NCBI GenBank assembly: GCA_963675665.1
Contig: OY776510.1
Span: forward strand, 2,240,001-2,304,000
Origin: Spirochaetia bacterium
Lineage (GTDB): Bacteria; Spirochaetota; Spirochaetia; UBA9216
DNA length: 64,000 nt
Direction of reading: 5' to 3'
The position numbers and the translations under genes were made by a program. Position 1 is the stretch's first letter. Each line of letters opens with the position of its first letter. Shown here piece by piece: positions 6,473 to 37,488 of the stretch. The notes under the pieces are model-generated. The model saw only the letters and a list, made by a program, of their open reading frames with translations. It did not search any database and was not told the origin of the DNA.

Positions 6473-8188
6473 TTATGAATTGATGATGTCCTGATAGTTT
6501 TTCAGCAGTGTCGATTCTCCGCTTATAATAAAATTCATATTCATTTCTATTCTTGTAAGCATTTTTGCAATGAATGTTTCAGCGATTTTCAACTTTCGCT
6601 CTGAATGTTTTGCGTCTCTCATAAAGAACAGTCCGATTACTATATCAGTTGCCATTTCGACAAGACGTCTGGAATGGTAAGTTATGATATCCTGGTCTGT
6701 AATCTCCTTGATCTTAATGAGGGTTTTTTCAAAATTGAGCTGGGCCTTTTCTACCTTTGAAAAAAGATCTTTGCAGTGACTGAAATCATTATTTTCTATG
6801 AAATCCTCAATAAAGCGTGATGCTGTTCCCGAGGTAATGCCTCCTATTGCGGCCACAACCTGAAGCTGGGAGGTTCCTTCATATATATTGGTTATTCTTG
6901 CATCGCGGTAGTGGCGTTCGGCATTGAATTCTTTCATATAACCTGTGCCGCCGTGAATCTGGATTCCGTCGTATGTAACCTTATTGGCAGCTTCCGTGTT
7001 GTGAAGTTTGGTCATCGGTGTAAACAGGTTTGCAAGCCTTGTATAAGTCTTCAGATCCGATTTAAGTTCGGATGCCCTTTCCGGATGGGTTTCGGAAATA
7101 TGTTCCAGGCATTCTTTCAGATCGACAAACCTTGATGTTTCGTAAAGCAGCGTTCTGCTTGCTTCAACGGCAATTTTCATCTCGGTAAGCATTTCATAAA
7201 CAGGCGGAAACTCGATAATAGGCTTGCCGAACTGGATTCTTTCCCGGGCATATTTATATGCCTCACGGTATGCTGCTTCCGCAATGCCGGTCGCCTGACC
7301 CGAAACCATAAGGCGCGCGCTGTTCATCAGCCACATTGTGTACTTTGTAAGGCCACGCCGTCTCTGACCGACAAGTTCAGCCGGAGCATTGTTAAACTGC
7401 AGCTCGCAGGTTGGCGAACCGTGGATGCCGAGTTTGTTTTCAACGCGCCTGATGGTCATGTGCTCGTCCCTTTCATAAAGGAAAAAGGAAAGCCCGCCGG
7501 CGCCCTTTGACCCTTCTTCGGAACGGGCAAGAACCAGCCCGATTTTTCCGTTTCCGTTGGTAATAAAGCGTTTTACACCGTTAAGATACCATCTTCCGTC
7601 ATCGGCCTGATGTGCGCGAAGCGTAACCGCCTGTAAATCGGAACCTGCATCCGGCTCGGTCAAAATCATCGAAGAAGTTTCTTTACCGCTTGCAAGTATG
7701 GGAATTATTCTTTCCTTCTGTTTTTCGGAACCGAATTTATTGATTGTTTCGCTTATATCCTGCTGCAGTCCGAAGTTCAGAAATGAACCGTCCGCCCGGC
7801 TCATTATTTCGCCGGCAATGGACATAACCGTTACGGGACAGTTCAGGCCTCCGTATTTCCGGGGGTTTGCAAGTCCCATCAAGTCAGCCTTTGCAAGCAT
7901 ATCAAGGGCCATCTGCGTGCCTTCAGCGTAAACGACTTCTCCGTTTACAAGTTTTACACCTTCTTCGTCTACTTCTGCTGCAACGGGAGCCATATATTCT
8001 CCGGCAATCTCTCCGATAAGCGAAAGAATTTTTTCATATGAATCCATACAGTCCGCTACGTCTTTCGGAGCGTGAGGGAAAATGTCTTTTTCCGCGAAAT
8101 TGTCCTCTTTCAGCTTGATGATCTGTTCAAGATCAATATGTTTGAGGTGAAACAGTATATCTTCATTATCTTTCAAAAAGTTTTCCAT
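6473..8188 (-). CDS. Acyl-CoA dehydrogenase with C-terminal extension
   Basis: LTEPDAGSDL, NGVKRFITNG, KLGIHGSPT, RIQFGKPI, QIHGGTGY, IYEGTSQLQ. Confidence 0.95.
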   Translation of the reverse strand: MENFLKDNEDILFHLKHIDLEQIIKLKEDNFAEKDIFPHAPKDVADCMDSYEKILSLIGEIAGEYMAPVAAEVDEEGVKLVNGEVVYAEGTQMALDMLAKADLMGLANPRKYGGLNCPVTVMSIAGEIMSRADGSFLNFGLQQDISETINKFGSEKQKERIIPILASGKETSSMILTEPDAGSDLQAVTLRAHQADDGRWYLNGVKRFITNGNGKIGLVLARSEEGSKGAGGLSFFLYERDEHMTIRRVENKLGIHGSPTCELQFNNAPAELVGQRRRGLTKYTMWLMNSARLMVSGQATGIAEAAYREAYKYARERIQFGKPIIEFPPVYEMLTEMKIAVEASRTLLYETSRFVDLKECLEHISETHPERASELKSDLKTYTRLANLFTPMTKLHNTEAANKVTYDGIQIHGGTGYMKEFNAERHYRDARITNIYEGTSQLQVVAAIGGITSGTASRFIEDFIENNDFSHCKDLFSKVEKAQLNFEKTLIKIKEITDQDIITYHSRRLVEMATDIVIGLFFMRDAKHSERKLKIAETFIAKMLTRIEMNMNFIISGESTLLKNYQDIINS

Positions 8189-8210
8189 AAGTTATCCCCT
8201 TGTACCTAAG

Positions 8211-9224
8211 CTATGCTTTAGCCTTGTATGCCTTGATGAACTGCGGAATAACCTCTTTAAGATCGCCTACGATTCCGTAGTGGGCAATCTGGAAGATGGG
8301 CGCTTCCGGATCAGTATTGATGGCAATTATCTTTGATGATTCCGACATACCTGCTCTGTGCTGAATAGAACCTGAAATACCGCATGCGATATAAAGTCTC
8401 GGTCTGACGGTTGTTCCGGTCTGGCCTACCTGGTGTTCTTTGCTTACCAGCCCTGCATCGACTGCCGCGCGTGAAGCGCCGACCTCACCGCCGAGAACGT
8501 GCGCAAGATTCTCAATAAGCTTGAAGTTCTCCCTTGTTTCAACGCCTATCCCGCCTGATACGATAATCTGGGCGCCTTTAAGATTTACCGATTTTTCTTC
8601 ACGAACGCGCTTGATTATCTCGGTCAGGAAATCTCCGGCATCAAGTTTAATTTCCAGCTTTGTGATTTTACCCTTGAAACCGGTATCCGGCTCAGTCATC
8701 TTCATAACGCCTTCGCGGACTGTTGCCATCTGCGGAGTTTTCTCGGGTGAAACGATTGTAGCGATTATATTTCCGCCGAAAGCCGGACGAATCTGGTAAA
8801 GAATATTCGTGTACTCTTTGTCACGGATTTTATGATCGCCAATCTGGAGATCGGTACAGTCTGCTGTAAGCCCGACCTTCAGGTTGGATGCTATACGGGG
8901 GCCGAGATCCCGGCCGGTGGTGGTTGCTCCGTACAATACTATCTGAGGTTTTTCGGTTTCGATAACCTGTTTTACCACTTTTGTGTAAGGAACGGGGGTA
9001 TAATGTGCAAGCCGCTTGTCTTCTACAAGAAAAAGCTCGTCGACTCCGTATGTTATTACTCTTTTTGCTTCCGCTTCCAGCTTGTCGCCGGCAAGTACGG
9101 CTGAAACCTTTACGCCGAGCTGATCGGCCAGGTCGCGGGCCTTGCATACAAGTTCAAGGCTTACATCGGCTACAATGCCGTCGTCCTGCTGGATAAAGAC
9201 CATTACTGTATTTTTATTGCTCAA
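8211..9224 (-). CDS. etfA: Electron transfer flavoprotein alpha subunit
   Basis: GLTADCT, RPAFGGN, GASRAAVD, QVGQTG, GISGSIQH; TTG start after AAGGAG. Confidence 0.95.
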   Translation of the reverse strand: MSNKNTVMVFIQQDDGIVADVSLELVCKARDLADQLGVKVSAVLAGDKLEAEAKRVITYGVDELFLVEDKRLAHYTPVPYTKVVKQVIETEKPQIVLYGATTTGRDLGPRIASNLKVGLTADCTDLQIGDHKIRDKEYTNILYQIRPAFGGNIIATIVSPEKTPQMATVREGVMKMTEPDTGFKGKITKLEIKLDAGDFLTEIIKRVREEKSVNLKGAQIIVSGGIGVETRENFKLIENLAHVLGGEVGASRAAVDAGLVSKEHQVGQTGTTVRPRLYIACGISGSIQHRAGMSESSKIIAINTDPEAPIFQIAHYGIVGDLKEVIPQFIKAYKAKA

Positions 9225-9234
9225 TTGTCTCTCC

Positions 9235-10110
9235 TTATCCTATTGTGTGATCGGCGATTAAATCATGGACCATACCGGCAATACCGCCGGTTGTGTTATC
9301 AACCATCACTATCTCGCCTGCAGTAAGAACAACCGACTCGATTTTTTTAACCTTTGTCGGCGAGCCTGACAGGCCGCAGCTTTCAACATCCGCGTTGATT
9401 GCTTCAATATCCCATTGTGCAAGGTTTGTATTTGCGCCTGCATCGCCGTCCATATAGCTTTCATCAAATGCTTCTGTAGAAACTTCGGTTGAAGCGTTCT
9501 TATATGCCAGCATTCGTATCGCGGAAGGAGGCCTTGGTACGAACCCTTCGTCAGTGAAGGTCATCAGAACCGGAAACCCTGCTTTTACAATCTCATAACC
9601 GCCTTCGATTGAACGGGTTGCTTCAATTGATTTTTTATTTTCATCAATCTTATTAATCCCGGAAACGCAGGTGATCTGGTTGATTCCGAGTTTTTCTGCA
9701 GTCTGGGGACCGACCTGGGCCGTGTCACCGTCTATCGCCTGCCGTCCGCAGAAAACCATATCGACATTGCCGATTTTTTCAATAGCACATTTTAATGCGT
9801 ATGATGTTGCAAGGGTATCGGCCGCTGCAAACCTTCTGTCCGAAATAAGGGCAACAAAGTCCGCTCCCCTGTATAGAGATTCCTTTAATACCTGAACTGC
9901 CGGCGGCGGTCCCATTGTCAATACATTTACCCTTGCATCCGGGTACATGTCCTTAACTGTAAGGGCTGCTTCAAGCGCATGCAGATCCTCAGGGTTGAAA
10001 ATAGCTGGAAGAGCCTGTCTGTTTACAGTTCCATCCTCTTTCATTGCTTCGCCGGTAATATTTGCTGTATCCGGCACCTGTTTCACAAGAACGACGAGAT
10101 TTAAACCCAT
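9235..10110 (-). CDS. etfB: Electron transfer flavoprotein beta subunit
   Basis: VKQVPD, NPED, MGPP, ADTLAT, GRQAIDGDTAQVGP, GLSGSPT; AGGAGG RBS. Confidence 0.95.
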   Translation of the reverse strand: MGLNLVVLVKQVPDTANITGEAMKEDGTVNRQALPAIFNPEDLHALEAALTVKDMYPDARVNVLTMGPPPAVQVLKESLYRGADFVALISDRRFAAADTLATSYALKCAIEKIGNVDMVFCGRQAIDGDTAQVGPQTAEKLGINQITCVSGINKIDENKKSIEATRSIEGGYEIVKAGFPVLMTFTDEGFVPRPPSAIRMLAYKNASTEVSTEAFDESYMDGDAGANTNLAQWDIEAINADVESCGLSGSPTKVKKIESVVLTAGEIVMVDNTTGGIAGMVHDLIADHTIG

Positions 10111-10398
10111 CCTTTCCTCCTGTTATCAAAACTTGGTAACCAACCCCGTAATATCAAGTTGGTTAGGTGTTTATCAAAATATTATTTATAATAATATGAA
10201 TAAAACGCCGGAAATTCAAGACTAATTTCGGTCGTTGGCCGATAAAATTTGCCTGTAATATGCATATTAAGTCTTTTATATTAAAATAAAAATATCCTTT
10301 ATTTTTTGTATTTGAGATACTATAATTTTCTCTTAAGAAATAAAAAAATAATTTTAAAGTGGTTCATAAAAAAGAAAACACTATTTCGGGGAGTTGTG

Positions 10399-11493
10399 AT
10401 GGACAAAGAGACCGCTTTAAAAATTAAGAAAGATCTATCCAGAAGAAAAAACAGACAGCTTAATCAATATGTCGCGGATATCACGGGAATGCTTGGGAAT
10501 TTAAAATCCGTTTCGGAAGATGTTTCCACTGAACTGGACATGAACAACAATATTCTGGAGCGCAACTTTGACGGGCTGATTAAAACACTCGTTAATTTTG
10601 ACGAATCGATAATATCAATAAGACAGAGCATTCTTAAAGAGAATGACGCAGTGGATAATGTAGCGGCATCTTCAGAGGAGATGGCCAGAACAGCTGATTC
10701 AATTTCTGAGAATATTACTTCGCAATCGGCTTCTCTTATTGAGTTTTCTTCGGTCCTGGAAGAGATGACCGCATCAATTAATAATGTTGCTACATCCACT
10801 TCAGAAGCTACAAATCTTGTAACTGAAGTATCAAAGACCGCAAAAGAAGGCAACCGGTTTGTTGAAGAAAACCTGAAAGCAATAGAAGACATCAAGACTT
10901 CTTCCGAGCAGATAACCAGTATAACTTCGGTAATTCAGCAGATATCAAGCCAGTCGAATCTTCTTGCAATGAACGCATCCATAGAAGCCGCCCATGCCGG
11001 GGAGCATGGACGGGGTTTTGCCGTCGTGGCGGAAGAAATGCGTAAAATGGCGGAAAGCAGCAGCACTGAAGCGGATAAAATCTCCAGGATAGTAAAAGAA
11101 GTAATGGATAAAATCGATCAGGCTGTCAGCGTAACCAGGCGTGTTACGGAAAATAACAATACCATTTCCAACGGAATCGGAAGAATCCTGGACATAACAA
11201 GCCAGATTATGGATGCAATGCAGGAACAGTCTGCAGGTACTGAACAGGTATTGAAGGAAGTTAAGTCGTTAACCGACGGAACAGCAGAAATAAAATCCGC
11301 AACCGGGGAACAAACAGGGGCGAACAGAACACTTTTAAATTCAATTACGGAATTGAGACAGGCAGCTGAAGATGTAAACAGAATTCTTGCTATTGAAGAA
11401 ATAACCCGTAACGAGATTGTTGATATCATTAATAAATCAGGAAGATCGTTTATCCGCAATACTGATATAAGCAGAAAACTGAACGGAGGTTGA
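10399..11493 (+). CDS. Soluble methyl-accepting chemotaxis protein (signalling domain only)
   Basis: [35 protein letters not shown] hairpin tip; no hydrophobic TM segment; start reassigned to ATG 10399 after GGGAG. Confidence 0.9.
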
Positions 11494-11499
11494 TAGAAA

Positions 11500-12030
11500 A
11501 TGGATATAGATTTTGTTCAGCGTTTTGATACAAGAAGGAATTTCCAGTACGTTAATGATGAACCGTCGGTTATGCATTGTCATCATTATGCAACATTATT
11601 CACAAAACTTGCCATGGATAACAAGGCCCTGAACGGACCGCAGCTTCTGTCTGATTCAATGGAAGACAGTATTTTTCTTGTTTTGAAAAAATATTATCTG
11701 AGGCATGAAATTTCATCAGTAAATATGAAAATTGAGGTTGCAGAAGAATATTTTTCCAAAATAGGAATGGGAAAAGTTTCAATCAGGTTCTCAGAGAGCG
11801 GAGGGAGTGCAAGAATGACCAGGTCCCATATTGACGAAGGCTGGCTGAAAAAATGGGGAAAGAATTCCGAACCTGTGAACTACATTAGCTGCGGCTATCT
11901 CAACGCTGTTTTTTCGCTGGCTTCAGCTTTACCTCTCAGATCTTTTCGGGCGGTTGAGAAAGAATCGATTGTTACGGGAAGCTCCCATTCAAATTTTTCA
12001 ATAACTCCCGCAGGAGGTAAGCTATCATGA
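11500..12030 (+). CDS. V4R/XylR_N-like small ligand-binding protein with HCHHY motif
   Basis: GMGK..., SHIDEGW, PVNYISCGYLNAVF, E.ESI..G...F pattern typical of V4R-fold proteins. Confidence 0.55.
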   Translation: MDIDFVQRFDTRRNFQYVNDEPSVMHCHHYATLFTKLAMDNKALNGPQLLSDSMEDSIFLVLKKYYLRHEISSVNMKIEVAEEYFSKIGMGKVSIRFSESGGSARMTRSHIDEGWLKKWGKNSEPVNYISCGYLNAVFSLASALPLRSFRAVEKESIVTGSSHSNFSITPAGGKLS

Positions 12031-12620
12031 TAGACAGAGATACTGCAATTGATGCCTTGTCGAAAATTAAAGTCAAAGGCAACAGCGACGGTCTGATACC
12101 GTCCTTTAATGTTCTGGTTAATTTTCTTCCCAGTTATTTCTGGAATACCTTTTCCGAGAAAATTCTTAAACAAACCGGAGACGATCCCGGGTTATATGCA
12201 AAAATAGAAGAGGGTCTTGAACTTGCCGCTGCGGAATGCGGATATCATACTGGGTACGGAATAATTACAAGCGAGGAATTCCGGTCGATAATCGGGCCAA
12301 TGATAGAAAAAGAACCTGATGATGTTCTTCACGGCGCATACGCTGTTTTTACAGCATGGGGCTGGGCCGATGCCGAGATTACCGAGTTGTCTCCGGCGCG
12401 AATGACTATAAAGGTAAATGACTATTATGAATCCGATATTATCGATACATTTAAGGTCACGAAGCCGTTTGCATATATGATTAAAGGCGTTTCCAGGGCT
12501 TTTATGGATCTGGGATATGGGAAACCGTATCCGGACGGGCTCGGGATGCATGTCTGCAGGCAGACAAAAGCAATAGAACTCGGCGACAGTTACGGAGAGT
12601 TTGTTGTTACAAAAGCATGA
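12027..12620 (+). CDS. Second V4R-like protein
   Basis: AWGWA, YYES, YMIKGVSRAF, CRQTKAIELGDSYGEF resembles the V4R C-terminal pattern; ATGA coupling on both sides. Confidence 0.5.
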   Translation: MIDRDTAIDALSKIKVKGNSDGLIPSFNVLVNFLPSYFWNTFSEKILKQTGDDPGLYAKIEEGLELAAAECGYHTGYGIITSEEFRSIIGPMIEKEPDDVLHGAYAVFTAWGWADAEITELSPARMTIKVNDYYESDIIDTFKVTKPFAYMIKGVSRAFMDLGYGKPYPDGLGMHVCRQTKAIELGDSYGEFVVTKA

Positions 12621-13762
12621 TATATTTCAATAACGCTGCTACGTCTTTTCCCAAACCTGGTGAAGTCATCGAACGTGTTAACAGGGTTCTCAGGGAAACT
12701 CCGGCAGAGCAGTCAAGGGGCGCCGGTGCTGCCGGGAGTGCATCTCCTGATTCCTGCAGAAAAACGGCTGCATCCTTTTTTAATCTGAAAGACAGCAGGC
12801 AAATTATTTTTACATCGGGGGCGACCGAGTCGCTGAATACGCTGATTTTCGGGATGACTGAACCCGGCTGCAGGGTTGTTACAACTGTTACTGAGCATAA
12901 TTCAGTATTAAGACCTCTTTTTCAGCTTGAAGATCGGGGGGATATTGATCTCTGCCTGGTCGGATGTGACAGGCAGGGTTATATAGATCTTGATTCATTG
13001 GCAAACGAGCTTAAAATTGCAACCGATCTGGTTGTTATCAATCATGCTTCGAATGTTACCGGGGCAATTCAGGATATTGAAAAAATAATTGATATCTGCA
13101 ACCGATCAAAGACACCGATAATACTTGATGCTTCTCAGTCGGCCGGGCATATACCGGTATCGGATTTCGGCTACAATAAAATTGCTGTTGCGTTCACCGG
13201 CCATAAAGGTTTATTCGGTATTCAGGGCAGCGGAGGATTCTATATTTCACCCGGAATAAAATGCCGTCCGTTCAAGCTCGGAGGCACCGGAAGCCGAAGC
13301 GAATCAAGGCAGCAGCCTTCCGAATTCCCGGTATATTTTGAGGCCGGAACCAGAGGCCTGCCGGGTATCTGTTCGATGGATGCCGGAATGAAATGGATTA
13401 CAGATCAGAATCTTTCCAAAATAGAATCAAGCGAAGCCCGGCTAAGGAATCTGCTGATTGATGGGATTTCCGGACATAAAAAGGTAAAATTATTTGCTGC
13501 GGATCGGATGTCAAAATCCACCGGATTACTTTCATTCGCTATTGACGGTTTTTCACCGGATGACATCTCCTATGTTCTCGAGAGATCTTTCGGAATAATT
13601 ACACGTCCCGGTCTCCACTGCGCGCCGCTTATGCATAAAGCGATAGGGACTTACCCTGAAGGAACAGTAAGAATAAGTTTCTCTGTTTTTAACAGTAAAG
13701 ACGAAGTTCTGCAGCTTATTAATGCAGTTGAATCAATAGCCGAAACTGTGGCGGCAGTATGA
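12617..13762 (+). CDS. Class V PLP aminotransferase, cysteine desulfurase family
   Basis: YFNNAATSFPKP, FTSGATESLN, EHNSV, HASNVTG, DASQSAG, TGHKGL (PLP Lys), EAGT, RPGLHCAP (catalytic Cys). Confidence 0.9.
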   Translation: MIYFNNAATSFPKPGEVIERVNRVLRETPAEQSRGAGAAGSASPDSCRKTAASFFNLKDSRQIIFTSGATESLNTLIFGMTEPGCRVVTTVTEHNSVLRPLFQLEDRGDIDLCLVGCDRQGYIDLDSLANELKIATDLVVINHASNVTGAIQDIEKIIDICNRSKTPIILDASQSAGHIPVSDFGYNKIAVAFTGHKGLFGIQGSGGFYISPGIKCRPFKLGGTGSRSESRQQPSEFPVYFEAGTRGLPGICSMDAGMKWITDQNLSKIESSEARLRNLLIDGISGHKKVKLFAADRMSKSTGLLSFAIDGFSPDDISYVLERSFGIITRPGLHCAPLMHKAIGTYPEGTVRISFSVFNSKDEVLQLINAVESIAETVAAV

Positions 13763-14043
13763 AGATAAACGGATCAAGGATGCTTGAAGACTGCCTGGAC
13801 GGTTCGTTTATCTTTGAGCTTAGCTATTCTGAACCTGTGACAGAAGAGGCGATCCTTATCCTGAACACTCTGGGTGAGCTTGAATATTTTTCAAGCTTCC
13901 CCAAACCTTTTTACCGTCTTGTACAGAATGATAACTTCCAGTTAAAGGGTGTTGAAGGCGAAACAACATCCCGGCTTTTTCTTTTTAAGGGATCGCTTAA
14001 GCACCTGATTGATGAACTGAATACGGTTTTTAAATTATTATAA
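13759..14043 (+). CDS. Small hypothetical protein, last gene of MCP operon
   Basis: 94 aa, ATGA overlap with desulfurase stop; EDCLDG and FPKPFY motifs. Confidence 0.75.
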   Translation: MKINGSRMLEDCLDGSFIFELSYSEPVTEEAILILNTLGELEYFSSFPKPFYRLVQNDNFQLKGVEGETTSRLFLFKGSLKHLIDELNTVFKLL

Positions 14044-14145
14044 CCATATCGGGCAGTTTTTAGGGAATGCCTGTTTTTAACGCTCCGGCCGCGACAGATA
14101 AAATAATAAGCTTGTTGAGGTACAATTGCTGAATTATAATGAGGC

Positions 14146-15915
14146 ATGTTTTCTTCAATCCAGAGCAGAAATACTTTATCCATTATTGCAGCTGTTGTCC
14201 TGTTTCTGGCTGTTCTTCTGCTGGTTAACTACCTGCTGTTAAGGGATTTCTCACTTGAACACGCGGAGCGGACCTCGACGCTGATACTCGACAGCGCCGA
14301 TTCCCAGCTTGATATAATTTTCAATGAGATAGAAGCGCTGGTATTATCGATGACGACTGTAAGGGCGGTCTATGAGGTTTATATTGATGATATGTCGGAG
14401 CTGTTTATCAACAATGTGCTGGTCAGGCAGCAGAATGTGCGGGCTATCTATCTCGGAACCGAGGACGGCCGGATGTTCGAATGGGGCGTCGGGGAAGGTT
14501 TTACTGATTATACTCCGAAGTTCCCTGAAGGATATGATCCCCGGGTAAGACCCTGGTACCGTCAGGCTGTTGAATCCGACAGTTACGGGTTGACGAGTCC
14601 GTACATATTCGCGAGCATTGAAGCCATAGGCATAACCGCCGTAGCCCCGGTCTATAATAAGGAAGTGCTTGTCGGCGTGCTTGGGCTGGATCTGATCATG
14701 CATGGCCTGGATAATGTCGTCGATTCGCTTGATGTTCCGATGGACGGAAAGGTGATGCTGTTGAACAGCGATATGGCCATTCTTGTAAACCAGTTTTTCC
14801 CTACAACCGAAGCTGTTACCGAGCTGGAGACTTTCCGGCACCCTGAGCTGATACAAACTGATGAAAGCTTTATCATTGCGGATGTTTACGGCGCACAATA
14901 TATGATCAGCACCGTTGAAAACCTTGAAACCGGCTGGATTATGCTGCTGTTTCTGCCGTACAAAAGGATTATGAATTTTTCACAGCAGATAATCATGATA
15001 ATTATATTATTTGATATTCTGCTCACCTTTCTCCTGGGATCACTTATAGCCTTTATCACGCGCAACCTTGTTACGAATCCGCTCGACAGAATTATATCGA
15101 TTTTCAGACGCTTCGAAAGCGGAGATATATCAGCCCGGATTCCGGACCTTCCCGGGCGAGAGTTTGGTCTTATTTCGAGGCTGTTTAACAGGCTTTCAGA
15201 TCAGTCCGCTGAATTTACCCGGACAATGGAAGGTAAGGTCGAGCAGAGGACTCAGGCGGTAATACGCCTTCAGAAGGAGAATGTAAGGCTTAGAATTATA
15301 GAAGAGAAAGAGCGGATATACGGAAACCTGCATGATTCTCTCGGCGCAAGGCTTACGAGCATCAATATCAGTAATCATGTTGCCAGGAGTGCGCTTGAAC
15401 GCAATGAAAAAATCGTGCTTTCAGAGATGCTTGATCGTATTGAAAAGAATACCGGGCAGGGAATTCAGGACTTAAAGGAAATTCTGAAAGCAGGGGAGGG
15501 CGATGCGGCAGGCCCTGTTGAGCTTCTGGATTATATCGGGAGGACGGTGCGTGAAAGGCTGGCGCTTAAAGATATAAAGCTCGAAACCAGGCTGCCTTCG
15601 GTTGAAGATGCTGCAATATTTGAGCCGGATTTTATCGTTAACTGCGAAAAGATTATTCAGGAGCTGGTTTCCAACACAATGAAGCATTCCGGCGCCGCCC
15701 TTGTGCGGATCGAACTTGATCTGGAGTCGAATAAAATCAAACTTAACTATATGGATAACGGAAACGGATTTGTTTTAAAAGATGCTCTCAGGAACGGGTT
15801 CGGACTTCAGGGGCTTTACAGCAGGGCTGAAAGAATGGACGGCATATTAAAGATTTCTTCACGGCCGGGCAGGGTTTCGACTTTTAATTTTCAATTCAGG
15901 GCCGGTGAAGAATGA
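14146..15915 (+). CDS. dCache-HAMP sensor histidine kinase (HisKA_3/NarX type)
   Basis: Two TMs, YDPRVRPWY dCache motif, HAMP, ERIYGNLHDSLG, QELVSNTMKHS, DNGNGF, GFGL. Confidence 0.9.
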   Translation: MFSSIQSRNTLSIIAAVVLFLAVLLLVNYLLLRDFSLEHAERTSTLILDSADSQLDIIFNEIEALVLSMTTVRAVYEVYIDDMSELFINNVLVRQQNVRAIYLGTEDGRMFEWGVGEGFTDYTPKFPEGYDPRVRPWYRQAVESDSYGLTSPYIFASIEAIGITAVAPVYNKEVLVGVLGLDLIMHGLDNVVDSLDVPMDGKVMLLNSDMAILVNQFFPTTEAVTELETFRHPELIQTDESFIIADVYGAQYMISTVENLETGWIMLLFLPYKRIMNFSQQIIMIIILFDILLTFLLGSLIAFITRNLVTNPLDRIISIFRRFESGDISARIPDLPGREFGLISRLFNRLSDQSAEFTRTMEGKVEQRTQAVIRLQKENVRLRIIEEKERIYGNLHDSLGARLTSINISNHVARSALERNEKIVLSEMLDRIEKNTGQGIQDLKEILKAGEGDAAGPVELLDYIGRTVRERLALKDIKLETRLPSVEDAAIFEPDFIVNCEKIIQELVSNTMKHSGAALVRIELDLESNKIKLNYMDNGNGFVLKDALRNGFGLQGLYSRAERMDGILKISSRPGRVSTFNFQFRAGEE

Positions 15916-16562
15916 TAAATCTGGTTATAGTGGAAGATTCCAAGGATACACGTGAAGGCCTCAAGTATCTGCTGCGGCTCGAGGAAGGCATAAGGGTGCT
16001 TAAAGCCTGCGAGAGTGCTGAAGAGCTGCTGATCGATTCTGATGTGCTTGGCAGCGTGGATATTGTATTGATGGATATCGAACTGCCCGGGATGAACGGA
16101 ATCAAGGCCACCAGAAAGATAAAAGAATTAAGGCCGGAGGTTGATGTCCTGATTCTGACGATTTTTGAAGAGCAGGAAAAAATTATCAAGGCTATTCAGG
16201 CCGGAGCTTCCGGCTATATCCTCAAGAACGCTGCGCCCGGAGAACTAGTCGGACAGATTAAAAGCGTTGTAAAAGGCGGCTCTCCAATAAGTCCCGGGGT
16301 AGCGCGTACGCTTCTTGAAGAATTCAGACAGAAAGAGAAAAGAAATAAAAGCACCGAAGATTACGATCTGACTCCCCGTGAGATTGAGGTTTTCAAGGCG
16401 ATAGTTGAAGGTTATACATACAAGGAAATGGCGGACGAGCTCAATATAGCTTCTTCGACAGCCAAAAAGCACATCCTTCATATCTATCGAAAGCTTAACG
16501 TTACTTCAAAGGTTGAGTTTATCAAGAAGGTTATTGATGAAAATATTCTCGAAGACCTGTAA
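15912..16562 (+). CDS. NarL/LuxR-family response regulator
   Basis: VED, MDIELPGMNG, GASGYILK, LTPREIEV...KKHILHIYRKL. Confidence 0.95.
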   Translation: MINLVIVEDSKDTREGLKYLLRLEEGIRVLKACESAEELLIDSDVLGSVDIVLMDIELPGMNGIKATRKIKELRPEVDVLILTIFEEQEKIIKAIQAGASGYILKNAAPGELVGQIKSVVKGGSPISPGVARTLLEEFRQKEKRNKSTEDYDLTPREIEVFKAIVEGYTYKEMADELNIASSTAKKHILHIYRKLNVTSKVEFIKKVIDENILEDL

Positions 16563-16564
16563 TA

Positions 16565-16640
16565 TACGCCAAATGGTGTAGAAACCGTAAAAGCAGACTG
16601 AAAAAATATAAATATTCACCTCCTATGGTCCATATACGCC
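16565..16640. promoter_or_regulatory. Candidate NarL-type 7-2-7 operator plus a repeated half site
   Basis: TACGCCA-AA-TGGTGTA at 16565-16580; ATATACGCC recurs at 16562 and 16632. Confidence 0.45.
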
Positions 16641-16701
16641 GGCATAATTCCGTGGTGTTATTAATACAATACAAATTCGGACTGATTTATTTGGAGGAAA
16701 A

Positions 16702-18000
16702 ATGAGTACAGAGAAGAAAAAACCTTTTGACTGGTATTTCAAGTCAAATCTGCTGATGCGAATTCTAATCGGCCTTATTGCGGGTGCGATAGTGGGAATT
16801 ATTTTCGGCACCAAAACAGCATGGTTGAATCCGTTCGGATCAATCCTTGTCAATCTGCTGAAAATGATTGTTATGCCGGTTGTTCTTTCGACGCTTGTCG
16901 TGGGCGCTGCAAGTATAAACCCGTCTACACTGGGAAAGATTGGGGTTAAGATCATTGCATTTTATCTGCTGACTTCGGCCTTTGCTGTTGCTGTCGGTCT
17001 GCTGATGGGAAATATTTTCAAACCCGGTCTGGGGCTTGAACTCGGTGCAGCAGCCGATGCCGCCGGCAAAGCCCTGGCTGCGCCGAAACTGTCAAGCACG
17101 CTGATTGCCATTATTCCGAATAACCCGTTCGGGTCCATTTCGGGAGGGGCTGTTCTTCCGACTATCTTCTTCGCCATCATTCTCGGTGTGGCAATCTCAT
17201 ATATCAAGCAGAGTGATAATGAGCGAATCAAAAAAAGCGGTGAAACACTGTTTAATGCATTCGACGGTCTGGCCGAGGCAATGTACCTGATTGTGCGCGG
17301 CGTTCTTCAGTATGCTCCGATTGGTGTTTTTGCGCTTATCGCTGTAGTTTTCGGCCAGCAGGGAGCAAAGGCCGTCGGTCCGCTCGGAAGCGTGACCCTT
17401 GCAGCCTTCCTCGGGTATGTGGTACATGTAGTTATTGTTTACGGTTTAATATTGATGCTCTCAAAGATTAATCCTTTGACCTTCTTCAAGGGAGCAAAAA
17501 CCCCGATGATAACGGCTTTTGTAACTAGAAGTTCCTCCGGAACCCTGCCTGTAACAATGAAGGCTGCTGATGAGAACTTCGGTATATCCAAGAACGTTTA
17601 TTCCTTCACCCTGCCGCTGGGCGCAACCATAAATATGGACGGTACTGCCATTTACCAGGGCGTTTGTGCCCTTTTTATCGGTTTTGCAATAGGCATGCCG
17701 CTTTCTTTCGGTCAGCAGCTTACCGTTATTCTTACGGCCGTTCTCGCATCAATAGGAACAGCCGGTGTTCCCGGCGCCGGCGCGATCATGCTTCTGATGG
17801 TCCTGAATTCCGTAGGACTTCCCGTTGAAGCCGGTACCCCGGTAGCCGCGGCATACGCGATGATTCTGGGAATCGATGCAATTCTTGATATGGGACGGAC
17901 TGCAGTTAACGTTACAGGCGATATGACCGGAACTCTTGTCGTCGCCAAGAGCGAGAAACAGATCGATATGGAGAAACTGACACGGAAAGCGGAATTATAA
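16702..18000 (+). CDS. Dicarboxylate/amino acid:cation symporter (DAACS, GltP/GltPh-like)
   Basis: [42 protein letters not shown]. Confidence 0.95.
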
Positions 18001-23415: not shown

Positions 23416-25263
23416 TTGATGGGTAGTAACGCTCTTATAAAACTCCTTCTTGTTGAAGACGAAGCGTTAATAGCTTCAAACGGAAAGAAATCTCTTGAAG
23501 AATACGGGTATACGGTTTTTATTGCGATGAACGCTGATGAAGCTGTGTTAACTGTTAATTCAACCAATATCGATCTGATTCTGATGGATATTGATTTGGG
23601 ACAGGGGAAGACTGACGGAATTAAAACAGCAGCAAGGATTTTAAAGAACTATGATATTCCCGTCATATTTCTTTCAAGCCATACCGACCCTGATATTCTT
23701 GAGCGGACACAAAAAATCACTTCGTACGGTTATATTGTAAAGAATACCGACATTGCAGTAATCGACACAATGATAAAAACTGCCCTGAAACTGGCGGTAC
23801 AAAAAAAGCAGCCTGATTCTGATGCGCAGGTTCTTTCTGAACTGGAAAAAACACGTTTGATGTTGAATGATGTGCTGAATACTATTCCGGTTCGGGTCTT
23901 CTGGAAGGACCTTGAAAGTGTCTATATGGGATGCAATCAACTCTTTGCGCTGGACTCAGGAAAGGATTCTCCGGATGATATTGTCGGGTTTACCGATTAT
24001 GATATACGATCCTCCGTGCAGGCGGAATTAAATCGAATTGACGACAGGAACATTATAGAAAGCGGAAACCCGCGGCTTAAATATGAAGAGCCCTTTTTAA
24101 CACAGGATGGAAATAAAAACTGGATAGTAACTTCGAAAATTCCGCTGCGAAACAGTTCCGGAGTCATGTACGGAATATTGGGAATGTATGAAGATATTAC
24201 CGAACGCAAGCGGATGGAAGAGGAGATAATTCTGCAAAAGAACCGGCTTGCAAATATATTATACGGAAGTAATGTCGGAACCTGGGAGTGGAATGTTCAA
24301 ACCGGCGAAAATATAGTTAATGAACATTGGGCCGCAATAATCGGTTATACCCTGGACGAGCTTCCTTCAGATAACCGGAATTCCTGGAAAAAATTTGTTC
24401 ACCGGGAAGATTTGGAAATTGCGAATGCTTTACTCGAAAAGCATTTTAATAATGAGCTGGATTATTTTGAGTGTGAGTTCCGTATGCGGCATAAGCATAA
24501 TCACTGGATCTGGGTTCTTTCCCGCGGCAAGGTTTCTTCCCGGACTGAAGACGGTAAACCGCTTCTTGTTTGTGGAACTCACCTGGATATAAATGAAAGA
24601 AAGTTGATTCAGGATGAAATTCTGAATCAGTTGTCGGAGAAACAGATTATTCTGAAAGAAGCACATCATAGGATTAAGAATAATATTTCTTCAATAAGCA
24701 GTTTGTTATCGCTTCAAGCCGAAACAATTGACAACTGGGAGGCAAAAGCGGCTCTTCAGGATGCAATCGGTAGAGTCCGCAGTATGCAGATTCTTTATGA
24801 AAAACTGCTGATAGCAGATGATTGCATGGATACCTCTCTGAAACATTATCTGGAAGATCTGGTTGATGATGTTATAGATGTGTTTCCCGACAGGATCAAT
24901 ATTAAAGTTGAAAAGCAAATTTGCGACTGCAGGCTTAATTCCAGGCAGATCTTTCCATTGGGGATTATTGTAAACGAAATTATTACCAATATACTGAAAT
25001 ATGCTTTTACAGACAGAGAATCGGGAGTTATCAGGATAAAAGCAAAAAAGGAAGATAAGAATATAATTCTTGAAATACAGGATAACGGAAACGGGCTGCC
25101 CGAGGATTTCGATATAGACAAGCAGGATGGCTTCGGTCTTATGCTTATCAGAATATTATGTCAGCAGCTGGACGGGTATTATCAGATTGAAAACTCCGCC
25201 GGTGTCAGAAGCATTCTGAAGTTTAAGATACCCGATTCACAAGCTGCGGTTATTTCGCACTGA
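23416..25263 (+). CDS. Hybrid REC-PAS-PAS-HisKA_2 histidine kinase
   Basis: LLVEDE/MDI receiver, VFWKD PAS, GTWEWN PAS_3, EAHHRIKNNI, DNGNG. Confidence 0.92.
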   Translation: MMGSNALIKLLLVEDEALIASNGKKSLEEYGYTVFIAMNADEAVLTVNSTNIDLILMDIDLGQGKTDGIKTAARILKNYDIPVIFLSSHTDPDILERTQKITSYGYIVKNTDIAVIDTMIKTALKLAVQKKQPDSDAQVLSELEKTRLMLNDVLNTIPVRVFWKDLESVYMGCNQLFALDSGKDSPDDIVGFTDYDIRSSVQAELNRIDDRNIIESGNPRLKYEEPFLTQDGNKNWIVTSKIPLRNSSGVMYGILGMYEDITERKRMEEEIILQKNRLANILYGSNVGTWEWNVQTGENIVNEHWAAIIGYTLDELPSDNRNSWKKFVHREDLEIANALLEKHFNNELDYFECEFRMRHKHNHWIWVLSRGKVSSRTEDGKPLLVCGTHLDINERKLIQDEILNQLSEKQIILKEAHHRIKNNISSISSLLSLQAETIDNWEAKAALQDAIGRVRSMQILYEKLLIADDCMDTSLKHYLEDLVDDVIDVFPDRINIKVEKQICDCRLNSRQIFPLGIIVNEIITNILKYAFTDRESGVIRIKAKKEDKNIILEIQDNGNGLPEDFDIDKQDGFGLMLIRILCQQLDGYYQIENSAGVRSILKFKIPDSQAAVISH

Positions 25264-26209
25264 TAGTCAGGGTCAGAATATCTTCATAATCACCTGCGGG
25301 AAGTGATGTACTGCCTGAATAGCTTATTTTCAACGGTTTTGCTGTCCATTCCGGGGTAGTAATGAGTGTTGAATCGGTTAACAGGGCTGTGCCGCCGCTC
25401 CACGAATCTACGGCCGTGCCTGCATATGTCAGAGAGTAGGTCAGCATACCTGCTGATTCCGACTGCAGAAAATAAGGTTCGGATGCTCCGCTGCCGTCGT
25501 TTGCAAGGTTTTTACTGGTAACCGACACAGTGTATCCTGTAGCCGAATTGCTTCGTTCGTTTACCGTGGCAATAAGCTTGTCTGTTTCATTAATTGTCAA
25601 ATCCATAAACCGTATTCCCGGTTCACGTATACAGTAGATGTCAAGCAGTTCCGCCATCCTTCCGTAGACAGTCACGTTTACACTGTCGGCAAGGACGTGT
25701 GTTCCGCTGTCGGCGTAATCTCCTTCATACAGGTAAAGAGTTATTGTGTCGGAGTATGTTCCCGAAGGGATAAACTGTCCCGAGTTGATGTAAAAGTAAA
25801 GATTGTAACTTTGCTGCTCCATCACTGCAGCTTCGCTGTTAAAGTCGGTTGTTGAGATTACACTAGTAGAAGTCAAAACTTCAGGCGGAGCCTTTATAAC
25901 GTCGGAGGAGGGCGGGGCGCTTTTATAAAGCTGATAGTACATTGTGTTCGACGAGAACACCAACTCCCGCGGTTCATAACCTGAGGAAGTCCCTTCATCA
26001 GCGGCAATAAACCATTGGGGAATTGCCGTACCCTCGTGTTCAACTGTTACGGATATGGTTTCATTTGAGATCTGTTCAAACGACGAATTAAGATAAACCC
26101 CACCCGGAGGCGCGCTGAACTGGAATAAATTATCACAGACTATATTTTGCAGCGGAATAATCGAAAATGTGAGCAGCAGGATTTTTATTTTAAAACATCT
26201 GTTTGTCAT
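25250..26209 (-). CDS. Two-domain fimbrial tip subunit/adhesin
   Basis: Signal peptide; two pilin-like modules ending SGTYSDTITL and AGDYEDILTLTISAK; last gene after usher. Confidence 0.65.
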   Translation of the reverse strand: MTNRCFKIKILLLTFSIIPLQNIVCDNLFQFSAPPGGVYLNSSFEQISNETISVTVEHEGTAIPQWFIAADEGTSSGYEPRELVFSSNTMYYQLYKSAPPSSDVIKAPPEVLTSTSVISTTDFNSEAAVMEQQSYNLYFYINSGQFIPSGTYSDTITLYLYEGDYADSGTHVLADSVNVTVYGRMAELLDIYCIREPGIRFMDLTINETDKLIATVNERSNSATGYTVSVTSKNLANDGSGASEPYFLQSESAGMLTYSLTYAGTAVDSWSGGTALLTDSTLITTPEWTAKPLKISYSGSTSLPAGDYEDILTLTISAK

Positions 26210-28575
26210 TATCCCTCCGGTAAGGTTATGGTTTCGGCATCAAAAAAACCGCCCTCTGCCGCGCTCAGGTCAATTTCGACGCTTTGATCCGTTCCGTTCA
26301 GCTTCAGGATGTAAATATCATTAAGAAGGTTATATGCTTCAAAATATCCGTTGTCGTCTGTAAAAAAGTCTACCCTTTCTGATGTATTTTTTCCAGTCAA
26401 ACTGCCGAGTACAGTATCGACGGGAAACCCGTCGCTGTCTTTTATAAAACCGCCGGCGAAAACTCTGATCTCGGCATGAGGCGTCACCACGAAAGCGGAC
26501 TTGTATGACGGGTATGCAAGGTACTTCATTCCGGCGGCATCCATACCCAGCGGGAGTTCTTCAGGTTCGATATAAACTTTACAGGTTTTAAAAGAATGGA
26601 TATTTGACATGATTCCCGGTTTGCCTTTAATTTCCAGATCGCTTTCGCTTAATGATGGGTTAACCTTAAGTGTCTGTTCCATAAACTGCTCTCCCGGAGC
26701 AATAATAATAAATGAATCCGTGACGGCTTTTGTAAGAAGAAAATTACCTTCGGCATATGCAATTCCGCTGTTTGCCCTGAGATAGGTTGAATTATTGGTT
26801 GCACCGGTATTAATTATTGCGTCAAAGTCATGTCCGCAGTCCAAACTGAACAGAGAATGATTGTATCCGCCGCTGAATCCGAGCGAGAGCTTTTCATCAA
26901 GACTCATTGGGAGTTCTGTGGATGCATTCAGTGAAAAATCGTTATCATCCGAACTGTAACGGTTCCAGAATGCGGACAGTTTTTGGGTTTCCAGGTTTTC
27001 AATAATATAAATGTTCTGTTTCTGATCGGGAAAAGACGAGGAGTAACTTATTGTAGCGGAAAAAGAGAGTTCCCTGTCATAGTCTACGCCGATATTGGCC
27101 GACAGCGCGCTTCCTCCTCGGATGCTTTTTTTAAGTATTACCTTTGCCCTGATTAAATTCCTGCTTTCGTCAAATTTCCAGCCCCAGGATGCTTCCGGGG
27201 TAAAACTGAAGCCGTCGCCGAAATAGAAATTATAGTACCCTTCTACCGACAGTAAAGACGGCGGTAACTCAGCGTTCGTTATTGAGTTGTAAGTGTAGGC
27301 GATGCTCCCGCCGAAATTCAGGTAACTGTTCTGCCCCGGTTTCAGCATCTGGTAACTGAGGCTTGCGTCTATTTTTTGCCCGCCGCTGAAGGACATCCCC
27401 CAGATCGGGACCAGGTTGAAGTTGCCTATACCGGTTGAAAGCAGAAAATCAGGATGGATTGCAAGCTCCAGCGTGTCGATATCGAAAGATTCGGTTATTC
27501 CGAAAGTAAACCTGTCGGTTATTCCTAAATACTGGTATGATGAAAAAGTCGGCAGAATAATTTGCCTGTCCGGCAGACCCGCGGCAATTCCAAGGTCAGT
27601 CTCGCCTGCGTCCAGCAGGCTGCTGTCGTAAGGAATAACAATATCTTCTTCATGAGCGCCTTCGCTGTCTTCCCATCTGATGGAAATCCTGTTGATTCCG
27701 CGGGATAAAGGGAAATCCTGGAAAATGTAATTACCGCTCGGATAATCCTTCTCCCTGATTTTACGGTCGTTCATATAGATTTCAACCTTTGAAGGTTCGC
27801 GAATAAATATTTCTCTGGCGTATAGCTGGCGGGCATCCGTGTCTGCAGCAAGCACCTGATTTTTTCTGAATGAGGCTCCGAGAAGCTTTGATGCGCCTGA
27901 AAGATCGGTTACCGGCAGTGTCAAATCTCCGACTTCAAGGCGGTACCCGGCTGATTTGAAATCTTTTACCAGACGGGCATAGTCCCAGAACAGCAGATCC
28001 CCGTTGGTTCTGATGCCGCCGCGGGCTTCTATAACCCAGTTGAAAATGTTTAGTCCGATTTCCGGTGTTGCCGAGAAATCATAAGAAAGCGTTTCGTATG
28101 TGAATTTATTCCAGAGATTCAGATTCATGAAGGCGCTGAAATCCGACTGTTCAACGTACTCTCCGGCAGGTTCTTTTGTGCTGCCCCTGAAAGAGACTAC
28201 AGTTTCCCTTTGAAGATGTGCCGGAATGGTAATGTGCATTGTAAGGTCTTCAAATTTAAAGAGTATTCGAACACCCAAACCTCCCATTTCGGTAAGATTC
28301 AGCCAGCCACTTTCCGGAAATATCTTTACGGCGGTCTCAATGGCTTCATCAGACATCAGATCCTGCAGATATGATATAAGTTCCGAAGGACGTATCTGAA
28401 CCGACTCATCGGACAGAATCGTGACGCCTATTTCTCCTGAATATATTTCATCGATAAAAAGAGGGATTGGGAGAGAGTCGGCTTCCTGGGTAAAGGCCGG
28501 AACCGGAAAACATAAAAACACCAGCAGCAGAACAGTAATCGGGGGTATGAATATGTATTTCCGGGCATGAGTCAT
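26209..28575 (-). CDS. Fimbrial outer-membrane usher
   Basis: Signal peptide, SAFMN, LEVGD...LLGASF, PSKVEIYMN, GNY...FPLSRGIN, LLDAGE, C-terminal FTDDNGYF. Confidence 0.8.
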   Translation of the reverse strand: MTHARKYIFIPPITVLLLVFLCFPVPAFTQEADSLPIPLFIDEIYSGEIGVTILSDESVQIRPSELISYLQDLMSDEAIETAVKIFPESGWLNLTEMGGLGVRILFKFEDLTMHITIPAHLQRETVVSFRGSTKEPAGEYVEQSDFSAFMNLNLWNKFTYETLSYDFSATPEIGLNIFNWVIEARGGIRTNGDLLFWDYARLVKDFKSAGYRLEVGDLTLPVTDLSGASKLLGASFRKNQVLAADTDARQLYAREIFIREPSKVEIYMNDRKIREKDYPSGNYIFQDFPLSRGINRISIRWEDSEGAHEEDIVIPYDSSLLDAGETDLGIAAGLPDRQIILPTFSSYQYLGITDRFTFGITESFDIDTLELAIHPDFLLSTGIGNFNLVPIWGMSFSGGQKIDASLSYQMLKPGQNSYLNFGGSIAYTYNSITNAELPPSLLSVEGYYNFYFGDGFSFTPEASWGWKFDESRNLIRAKVILKKSIRGGSALSANIGVDYDRELSFSATISYSSSFPDQKQNIYIIENLETQKLSAFWNRYSSDDNDFSLNASTELPMSLDEKLSLGFSGGYNHSLFSLDCGHDFDAIINTGATNNSTYLRANSGIAYAEGNFLLTKAVTDSFIIIAPGEQFMEQTLKVNPSLSESDLEIKGKPGIMSNIHSFKTCKVYIEPEELPLGMDAAGMKYLAYPSYKSAFVVTPHAEIRVFAGGFIKDSDGFPVDTVLGSLTGKNTSERVDFFTDDNGYFEAYNLLNDIYILKLNGTDQSVEIDLSAAEGGFFDAETITLPEG

Positions 28576-28580
28576 TCACG

Positions 28581-29423: not shown

Positions 29424-29426
29424 TTT

Positions 29427-37086: not shown

Positions 37087-37488
37087 ATGATTGGTTTGAA
37101 GGCTGACGGTTCTCCGTACCGTATTATGATTGTGGACGACTCAATATTTGTACAAAACCAGATAAAAAAACTGCTTCTTCCGGAGGGATTTGAAATAGTT
37201 GCTACCGCCGGTCATGGACGCGAGGCAATAGAAAAATACCAGTCGCTCTGTTCAGGTATCGATTTGGTCACCATGGATATTACCATGCCGGGTATGCACG
37301 GTGTTGAAGCCATGAAAGAAATCATAAAGATTAATCCTGATGCTTGCGTTATTATAGTCAGCGCACTGGGCAGAACCGATTTGATGAAAGAAGCTTTGCT
37401 TTGCGGTGCCGCCAATTATATTATCAAACCGATTAAGAGGAAAAATCTTTTACAGACTATACAGTATGCAATTCAGGCATTTATATAA
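37087..37488 (+). CDS. Single-domain CheY-like response regulator
   Basis: IVDDS, MDITMP, SA, IIKP; spirochaete-like N-terminal extension GLKADGSPYR. Confidence 0.9.
   Translation: MIGLKADGSPYRIMIVDDSIFVQNQIKKLLLPEGFEIVATAGHGREAIEKYQSLCSGIDLVTMDITMPGMHGVEAMKEIIKINPDACVIIVSALGRTDLMKEALLCGAANYIIKPIKRKNLLQTIQYAIQAFI

Follow-up and report, generated by a model that had tools for sequence, protein, structure and literature searches.

An operon of five genes on the + strand of a Spirochaetia bacterium genome encodes a soluble methyl-accepting chemotaxis protein (MCP), two proteins of a sensor fold, which we call A and B, a putative cysteine desulfurase, and a 94-residue protein, S94. It lies at 10399..14043 of the window, by which we mean the whole stretch of 64,000 nucleotides that was analysed (positions 2,240,001 to 2,304,000 of contig OY776510.1, GenBank assembly GCA_963675665.1). 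On balance, we favour the reading that this operon specifies a bipartite cytoplasmic chemoreceptor, in which A and B constitute the input module and bear a sulfur-derived site, and the gene set is probably an undescribed route by which an internal signal is fed into chemotaxis.

In the mechanism that we propose, A and B would act as one unit, as their strict adjacency and overlapping genes suggest. This hetero-pair would dock on the end of the MCP hairpin opposite the tip that binds CheA and CheW, where input from HAMP or transmembrane segments normally enters, and docking there would make A/B the missing input domain of the receptor. S94 would accept persulfide from the desulfurase, the two forming a dedicated sulfur-relay pair, and the sulfur would go to a site composed of the HCHHY motif of A and the CGYH motif, H102, and C177 of B, where an Fe-S cluster or some other group derived from sulfur would be most likely. 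A change at this site, whether in redox state or in response to O2, a gas, or a sulfur species, would shift A/B, and the signal from the MCP to CheA would be biased accordingly.

The operon and its soluble chemoreceptor

The MCP gene (10399-11493; 364 aa from its ATG in the open reading frame (ORF) listing) is followed by the genes for A (11500-12030; 176 aa), B (12027-12620; 197 aa), the desulfurase (12617-13762; 381 aa), and S94 (13759-14043; 94 aa). A first-pass annotation, made by a model from the sequence alone, had described five same-strand genes with a 6-bp gap and three ATGA overlaps, and the junction sequences agree with it: MCP/A reads TGA-TAGAAA-ATG, and the remaining three, A/B, B/desulfurase, and desulfurase/S94, are ATGA start/stop overlaps. 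GGAGG stands ahead of the starts of both A and B. The longest ORF of the MCP begins at TTG 10306, but we took ATG 10399 as the start because GGGGAG sits 5 nt upstream of it and because orthologues begin at the equivalent position.

PF00015 is the sole domain of the MCP (10399..11493; residues 140-292, E 8.4e-36, 123.8 bits versus a cut-off of 34.6). Pfam and NCBIfam scans and hydropathy found no ligand-binding or transmembrane input module of its own, and since the Kyte-Doolittle mean peaks at 0.67 over any 19-residue stretch, we consider the protein to be without a transmembrane segment. The hairpin tip, EHGRGF, with the invariant columns E196...G201..G204.G206F207, is located at residue 202 of 364, and the MCP therefore amounts to little more than the hairpin itself, extended by about 44 residues at its N-terminus. 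The earlier description of a receptor with no transmembrane segment and almost no N-terminal sensor region was thus accurate. This MCP is among the shortest of the 24 MCPsignal matches in the genome, which also has nine CheW-domain matches, so that a chemotaxis apparatus exists to receive its signal.

Alignment revealed two further motifs in this receptor, which we refer to as being of the tail class. The N-terminal motif (residues 46-65; 10534..10593) reads L.MNN.ILE.NF at window residues ~46-57 and is found in MCPs encoded directly upstream of A. The C-terminal tail (residues 335-359; 11401..11475) reads N[RK]..[IM].D..N[KR].G[RK]...[IV]R, with D342, G348, and R353 invariant in an alignment of eight sequences. 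Both motifs are missing from the other aligned MCPs that are linked to the cassette.

A pair of proteins with a sensor fold

AlphaFold2 models of A (11500..12030) and B (12027..12620) built on family alignments had predicted local distance difference test (pLDDT) values of 93.8 and 86.5, respectively. The top Foldseek match of A was PoxR (5frw_A; E 1.6e-8, query-normalised TM-score (TMq) 0.75), within a group of PoxR, MopR, and DmpR matches with E of 1.6e-8 to 1.6e-6 and TMq of 0.70-0.76; Bet3/TRAPPC3 and the V4R protein MJ1460 (E 3e-4) were also matched. For B, MopR (5kbh_A) and TRAPPC3 (6aq3_E) each gave E 6.2e-6, MJ1460 gave E 1e-3, and TMq against the MopR, PoxR, and DmpR sensor domains was 0.53-0.60. 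The label "V4R-like" given to both proteins by the first-pass annotation therefore holds for the fold, a helical layer against a beta-hairpin sheet, but not for family models, as neither these two proteins nor S94 had any Pfam or NCBIfam match at E<=0.1, V4R and XylR_N included.

Judging from an hhalign comparison of the two (probability 76.9%, E 2.1e-5, 139 columns), A and B are distant paralogues. In a database clustered at 90% identity, A has 156 homologues and B has 1348, and none of the 240 A/B homologues listed carries a Pfam assignment. B, which is single-copy in the window's closed genome, is strongly conserved, with a mean column identity of 71% in its alignment and 59-88% identity over the 119 non-self matches listed, which include Spirochaetales, Sedimentisphaerales, Zixibacteria, and Aliikangiella. 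The A profile matched 0 PDB sequences at E<=10, and for this reason the ligand and zinc residues of A were mapped by pattern only.

These structural matches could also mean that A/B is a MopR/PoxR/DmpR-like sensor of a hydrophobic or aromatic metabolite or of a tetrapyrrole, and that the desulfurase and S94 are merely co-regulated with it, which we consider quite unlikely. The best matches of both proteins, with the values given above, are indeed phenol-binding domains, and the conserved aromatic residues of A (W115/W119) and B (W111/W113 and Y133/Y134) recall the Trp that, according to excerpts of a report on DmpR, lines the pocket of that protein (PMC7264223). However, identity to the phenol sensors is 11-15%, the A profile finds no relative among PDB sequences, and the linkage of a desulfurase and a one-cysteine protein to A/B spans phyla and both of the lineages described below, so that the sulfur genes are hard to explain as passengers.

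Predicted docking on the chemoreceptor

When A, B, and the full-length MCP were modelled as a complex, with the MCP as the scored partner in three runs and with three controls, the interface score ipSAE was 0.82 (0.81, 0.82, and 0.83 in the individual runs), compared with 0.01 for the best control. In the calibration of the score, 116 of 157 solved complexes attain that mark, as do 2 of 215 mismatched pairs. Contact agreement was at least 93% and the pLDDT of the partner at least 87, and putting an unrelated protein in the place of B abolished the contacts of the MCP (0 contacts, score 0.00). To our knowledge, there is no solved V4R-MCP complex whose memorisation could account for this score. 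A V4R-MCP interaction, on which the first-pass annotation had made its sensor proposal depend, is thus predicted with a confident interface.

The MCP residues predicted to be in contact, 57-65 and 335-359, coincide with the two motifs that had been found earlier by alignment, the tail being the main contact with A/B. In A, the contacts are residues 10, 12-13, 17, and 20-22, which belong to the N-terminal strands just before HCHHY, together with 56-68 and 145-147, and in B they are 37, 41, 137, and 140-141. The contacting MCP residues sit at the far end of the hairpin from its tip, the point at which an MCP usually receives its input, and the models therefore predict that A/B docks on the input end of the receptor through its N-terminal motif and C-terminal tail.

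A tail of this kind could serve another purpose. CheR binds the C-termini of receptors, and the tethering of accessory enzymes to MCPs through tails is a known principle. A/B, the desulfurase, and S94 could form, instead of a sensor, a complex for sulfur trafficking or modification, or else an accessory factor of the array or of adaptation held on the MCP tail, as might also be thought from those loci (8 of the 35 with full context, as defined below) in which desulfurase-S94-S70-A-B stands alone among the tracked families. We regard this as improbable, given that several unrelated kinds of signalling gene flank the cassette and that the predicted contact, at the hairpin's input end, takes in the N-terminal helix as well as the flexible tail.

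Conservation of the module and its two lineages

The set of loci examined (n = 100) comprises the window, 19 genome loci, and 80 loci from metagenomes (the best 80 among 252 relatives). A subset of 35 is fully covered, with at least 3.5 kb upstream and at least 2.5 kb downstream of B, while elsewhere contig ends hide neighbours. Near B, and always on its strand, the 100 loci contain A (93), S70 (61), S94 (60), the desulfurase (50), an MCP (27), and a mixed REC/CheW-type cluster (19); in the 35 loci with full context, the corresponding numbers are 34 for A, 25 for S70, 29 for S94, 22 for the desulfurase, 13 for the MCP, and 10 for the REC cluster. The commonest gene order is desulfurase-S94-S70-A-B, and in 8 of the 35 nothing else among the tracked families is present.

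As labelled, the 19 genome loci span at least nine phylum-level groups, including Spirochaetota, Planctomycetota, Zixibacteria, Ignavibacteria, Thermodesulfobacteriota, Acidobacteriota, Aminicenantes, and Clostridia, lineages that we take to be mostly anaerobic. Since the genes stay together across many phyla, their arrangement is not due to chance, and the failure of homologues to be co-located in other genomes, which the first-pass annotation had named as fatal to its proposal, was not observed. In the window's own phylum, the module is rare and scattered, being present in 5 of 401 sampled genomes, the window's included.

The module is a conserved unit that occurs alongside several kinds of transducer, of which chemotaxis is the most frequent but not the sole one. 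Pfam searches on its neighbours found CheW, CheA-REC, CheB, CheW-REC, hybrid kinases, REC-DUF4388 (PATAN) regulators, and a PAS sigma-54 activator, the MCPs adjacent to the cassette consist mostly of the MCPsignal domain alone (317-423 aa), and in some loci no signalling gene adjoins the cassette. Of the bipartite chemosensor put forward by the first-pass annotation, the conserved gene unit, the V4R folds, and the sensor-less MCP have stood; the module is, however, not specific to chemotaxis, as an MCP lies beside 13 of the 35 cassettes with full context.

Some non-spirochaete loci have neighbours of another type. REC-DUF4388 genes lie directly upstream of the cassette in L013 (4031-5245), L015 (790-1905), and L019 (3086-4324), and a gene for DUF4388 alone in L009 (4120-5199), while L007 has two Roadblock/LC7 genes (7852-8205 and 8437-8814) about 1.3-2.2 kb downstream of B. 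Such a neighbourhood hints that the cassette may be tied to polarity or motility switches and not to classical chemotaxis. One could thus imagine A/B to be a TRAPP-like regulator of a small GTPase/ATPase polarity switch, in which Bet3-fold pairs work with Roadblock and PATAN proteins, particularly as Bet3/TRAPPC3 chains are among the structural matches. Nevertheless, Pfam searches of the other 51 ORFs of the window found no Ras-like (MglA-type) GTPase, Roadblock, or PATAN protein beside the operon, and the sole GTPase match in the window (37473-38714, - strand; 413 aa; GTP-bdg_N/GTP-bdg_M/MMR_HSR1) is about 23 kb away. Since A/B in the window has an MCP beside it, with which it is predicted to be in direct contact, we consider such a role highly improbable.

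S70 is an unnamed protein of about 62 aa encoded directly upstream of A in 61 of the 100 loci (for example, L013:5257-5469, L015:1958-2164, L019:5257-5460, and L046:210-401, with ~57 further loci), and its consensus is MG.KL.K.Y..AK..GG..AQMRLAMKTG..S.KA...PDSPENI.KFK.A.KEITGKD. It had no match at E<=1 in the window's closed genome. A hidden Markov model of the MCP tail, made from eight seed sequences, found 11 of the 100 loci, each time in an MCP directly upstream of A and including three loci that had not contributed to the seed (L004, L017, and L025, which is identical to L024). S70 occurs in none of these 11 loci versus 61 of the 89 others, so that tail and S70 are mutually exclusive. The tail was also found in three further loci of the phylum sample, one of which, L103, shares its coordinates with L004 and probably represents that contig again. 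In a quick maximum-likelihood tree of B (IQ-TREE, 89 rows), one branch with an SH-aLRT value of 97 parts the tail lineage from the S70 lineage; because the tree is unrooted, no direction of change can be inferred from it. There are thus two lineages: most loci have S70, and those of the window's lineage are without S70 and have the N-terminal motif and C-terminal tail of the MCP instead.

We also considered whether the MCP tail might be S70 fused to the receptor, and rejected this idea, as hhalign gave a probability of 0.2% and the S70 profile finds nothing among the window's proteins.

If the favoured reading is right, the module would be a general plug-in sensor, and in the larger sister lineage S70 would take the place of the MCP tail, with MCPs, Che proteins, REC-DUF4388 regulators, or kinases as partners. 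A comparison of the two lineages that is independent of the confidence of the complex model bears on the docking. At the 17 contact positions of A, the mean entropy is 1.23 bits versus 1.37 elsewhere in the tail lineage (10 distinct rows), and 2.41 versus 1.55 bits in the S70 lineage (59 rows). Here the S70 lineage exceeds the tail lineage by 1.17 bits, compared with 0.28 over all positions, an excess that none of 10,000 random sets of 17 positions reaches. For instance, Y17, L60, and L67 of A are hydrophobic in the tail lineage and become mixed, acidic (D/E), or basic (K/R) in the S70 lineage. The five contact positions of B behave similarly, with 1.06 versus 0.88 bits in the tail lineage and 2.26 versus 0.91 in the S70 lineage. 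By these sequence comparisons, the contact positions of A appear to be constrained only in the tail lineage.

The desulfurase and S94

The enzyme of the operon (12617..13762) is of the class-V, group II type and matches TIGR01977 with 389.8 bits (cut-off 377) and PF00266 with E 1.4e-67 and 228.7 bits. It keeps GHK (Lys197) and LHCAP (Cys335), so that the pyridoxal phosphate lysine and catalytic cysteine recognised earlier are both in place, and they are also kept in the copies of other cassettes (K197 46/46, C335 47/47; these and all later residue counts refer to distinct, non-gap rows of the fetched loci). The SclA selenocysteine-lyase model gave 284 bits, under its cut-off of 525, and as to substrate the enzyme reads as a putative cysteine desulfurase. 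Because it is one of seven Aminotran_5 genes in a single-contig genome of 5.15 Mb, we regard it as an extra, dedicated copy.

S94 (13759..14043), of an unnamed family, has one invariant cysteine, Cys12 (nt 13792-13794; 54/54), and is a candidate persulfide acceptor or cofactor ligand. Its gene is directly 3' of the desulfurase gene in both lineages. The family is real and widespread: of the cluster representatives retrieved by a profile search, 472 pass E<=1e-3 and 318 pass E<=1e-10, and the 150 relatives listed are stand-alone proteins of 65-134 aa. A word-indexed homologue search returned only the window's own protein, the relatives being recovered by phmmer on the loci and by the profile search. 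S94 matched none of the SufE/CsdE, SufU, and TusA models of Pfam and NCBIfam; 30 members of the family compared with Pfam at E<=1 gave five scattered single-member matches to unrelated families (best E 0.081); the best E against PDB sequences was 0.96, which reveals no relative; and in a protein atlas S94 fell in unnamed clusters only, with a recognition value under the tool's mark.

Other sulfur-related genes occur near some cassettes. In L017 (6522-7547; Spirochaetota), a 2-thiouracil desulfurase-like PF04463 plus DUF1722 gene follows B in the place of the class-V desulfurase, and in L010 (1338-2166; Ignavibacteria), DsrC-like and DsrE/DsrF-like sulfur-relay genes are found about 3-4 kb upstream of the cassette.

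The strongest rival to our reading gives the enzyme a different role. According to this alternative, which we judge unlikely, the desulfurase and S94 would themselves be the sensing element, their turnover would report the supply of cysteine or sulfur, and A/B would be no more than a coupler passing the persulfide-loaded state on to the MCP or other transducers. S94 and the desulfurase can be called the most constant companions of A/B (29/35 and 22/35), and the conservation of B (71%) is beyond that of a typical ligand sensor, as might be expected of a protein with several fixed partners. On the other hand, the near-invariant HCHHY and CGYH motifs point to a group bound in A/B itself, and 13 of the 35 loci with full context have no desulfurase next to the cassette.

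Conserved residues and the putative site

The site to which the favoured reading would assign the sulfur-derived group is outlined by His and Cys residues. In A, the HCHHY motif (residues 26-30; 11575..11589) is near-invariant (H26 80/80; C27, H28, and H29 79/80 each), as is W115 (87/87). In B, the CGYH motif (residues 71-74; 12237..12248) has C71 in 90/91, Y73 in 91/91, and H74 in 88/91 rows, H102 is kept in 77/91, and Cys177 (12555..12557) is kept in 88/90, alongside Q179 and E184 (90/90 each) in the last beta-hairpin. At the V4R zinc positions, A has E153, S156, and S164, by pattern mapping and not by superposition, where we take MopR to have Glu/Cys/Cys, and its residue 131 is variable (Q/C/A); at the matching positions in the hhalign register, B has Q179, A182, and G190. 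In the excerpts on DmpR, the zinc ligands are C151, E172, C177, and C185 (PMC7264223).

A more far-reaching version of the cofactor idea, which we regard as possible but doubtful, is that A, B, and S94 jointly form an inter-subunit sulfur-derived cofactor that is loaded by the desulfurase, for example, an Fe-S cluster on A-Cys27, B-Cys71, B-Cys177, and S94-Cys12 with His as back-up. The module would then be a new and universal plug-in class of cytoplasmic redox or gas sensor, spread by transfer among anaerobes and wired to its partners through MCP docking, as in the window's lineage, or through S70 to MCPs, PATAN response regulators, and kinases.

Several points weigh against a cofactor-bearing input module of the MCP. 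The V4R zinc site (Cys/Glu/Cys/Cys) is, by its pattern, not kept in A or B, and as the invariant Cys and His lie elsewhere, they would have to form a site different from that of known V4R sensors; moreover, A and B together hold just three near-invariant cysteines, and the only pointers to an Fe-S cluster are conserved residues and gene linkage. The desulfurase and the MCP are not obligatory, as they are absent beside 13 and 22 of the 35 loci with full context, respectively, and the locus counts are not independent, since they include many near-duplicates (for example, L024/L025, L045-L047, and L084/L085). As for the docking, the calibration of ipSAE holds only roughly for a prediction with three chains and our own alignments (8 rows for the MCP), and the MCP was folded as a monomer although MCPs are dimers, so that the score supports binding without proving it. 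Finally, the entropy contrast is partly confounded, because the tail lineage is small and closely related and because contacts are surface positions.

Boundaries of the operon and other genes in the window

An AT-rich spacer of 288 bp between the electron transfer flavoprotein (ETF)-beta gene and the MCP gene (10111..10398), which we presume to be the promoter region of the + strand operon, sets it apart from the divergent ETF and acyl-CoA dehydrogenase genes. A consensus promoter scan of 9900-16800 found no + strand promoter-like site in 10111-10398, with weak - strand ones only. Over the same 9900-16800, the terminator and promoter scans were no richer than shuffles (18 vs 13.4 and 8 vs 7.1), and the 65 nt 3' of S94 fold no better than shuffles (z 0.80). 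A gap of 102 bp, in which no convincing terminator was found, separates S94 from a dCache-HAMP-HisKA_3 kinase gene (14146-15915, + strand), which overlaps the next gene, for a NarL-type regulator (15912-16562, + strand), by 4 bp. These two are not part of the module, being absent beside the cassette in the closest loci, where L001 has opposite-strand genes and L004 an MscS channel gene.

Elsewhere in the window, genes for an XdhC/CoxI-family protein and a MobA-like nucleotidyltransferase-HD fusion (360-2554, + strand), of the molybdenum-cofactor maturation type, lie about 8 kb upstream of the operon, and a PF01837 homocysteine-biosynthesis sulfur-incorporation enzyme gene adjoins one for a NIL-domain 4Fe-4S ferredoxin (35350-36962, - strand). 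At 25250-29936 (- strand), a gene for an SCPU (spore coat protein U) protein is followed by ORFs of 788, 280, and 169 aa that have no Pfam match at E<=1e-6, possibly a cluster for a secreted pilus or of an usher-like kind. At the window's end (58777-62305, + strand), genes for Cas3 (HD and helicase) and Cas5 are found in DNA of lower G+C (0.37-0.40) with a strong GC skew.

Significance and comparison with known systems

The route by which input reaches cytoplasmic sensor-less chemoreceptors is known for very few cases. Here, four unnamed families (A, B, S94, and, elsewhere, S70) make up one module with its own sulfur supply and interchangeable signalling partners, and the window has its simplest form: a single soluble MCP carrying a predicted docking motif, a pair of sensor-fold proteins, an enzyme, and a helper. 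If the cofactor idea is true, this would be a new sensor chemistry in chemotaxis and would give a function to a large unannotated family, B by itself numbering 1348 clusters at 90% identity. Even if it is not, the docking motif would remain as a model of an MCP whose input domain is supplied by a separate protein. Our literature search, which left most subscription journals outside its reach, found no description of a module of V4R pair, desulfurase, and MCP.

Each component resembles something already described. A and B share their fold with MopR, PoxR, and DmpR, sigma-54 activators with XylR_N and V4R domains, and excerpts on DmpR describe its sensor domain as a dimer interlocked through N-terminal residues (PMC7264223); in the AlphaFold2 model, A keeps N-terminal strands. 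In contrast to these activators, A and B would work as a stand-alone hetero-pair with an MCP instead of a fused AAA+ domain as output, and at 11-15% identity they do not keep the zinc ligands and have new invariant motifs, HCHHY and CGYH. The fold and the occurrence of paralogue pairs are also common to the eukaryotic and Asgard TRAPP Bet3 heterodimers and archaeal MJ1460, but the matches of A to these are weaker (E 1e-4 to 1e-3) and the GTPase context is absent in the window.

The desulfurase and S94 can be compared with the two-component group II systems SufS-SufE, SufS-SufU, and CsdA-CsdE. As in these, a SufS/CsdA-like enzyme with an RxGxHCA-type active-site loop and pyridoxal phosphate chemistry stands beside a small protein with a single conserved cysteine; unlike in the known pairs, S94 is outside the SufE, SufU, and TusA models, and the enzyme belongs to TIGR01977, a family with no assigned function. 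A V4R protein with a separate partner has been proposed as a gas sensor before: in CorQR of Thermococcus onnurineus, CorR is proposed to sense carbon monoxide, according to a passage that cites this work (PMC6557876). CorQR is a transcriptional system, however.

The closest functional precedent is the ODP protein of Treponema denticola (TDE2498), which, as excerpts of its report describe, is genetically coupled to TDE2496, an MCP homologue without transmembrane and sensing modules (PMC7666581). In both cases, a spirochaete has a sensor-less soluble MCP and, adjacent to it, a separately encoded cytoplasmic sensor, the binding of the two being a prediction in ours. In T. denticola, the sensor is one di-iron protein, whereas in the window it would be two V4R-fold proteins with a desulfurase and a one-cysteine protein, and a defined docking motif is predicted on the MCP; Pfam and NCBIfam found no match to the di-iron (ODP) family among the operon's proteins. 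Thus, a separately encoded sensor that feeds a sensor-less MCP is a kind of system already known, this one is built from unnamed families, and there is a substantial chance that its sensor chemistry is categorically new.

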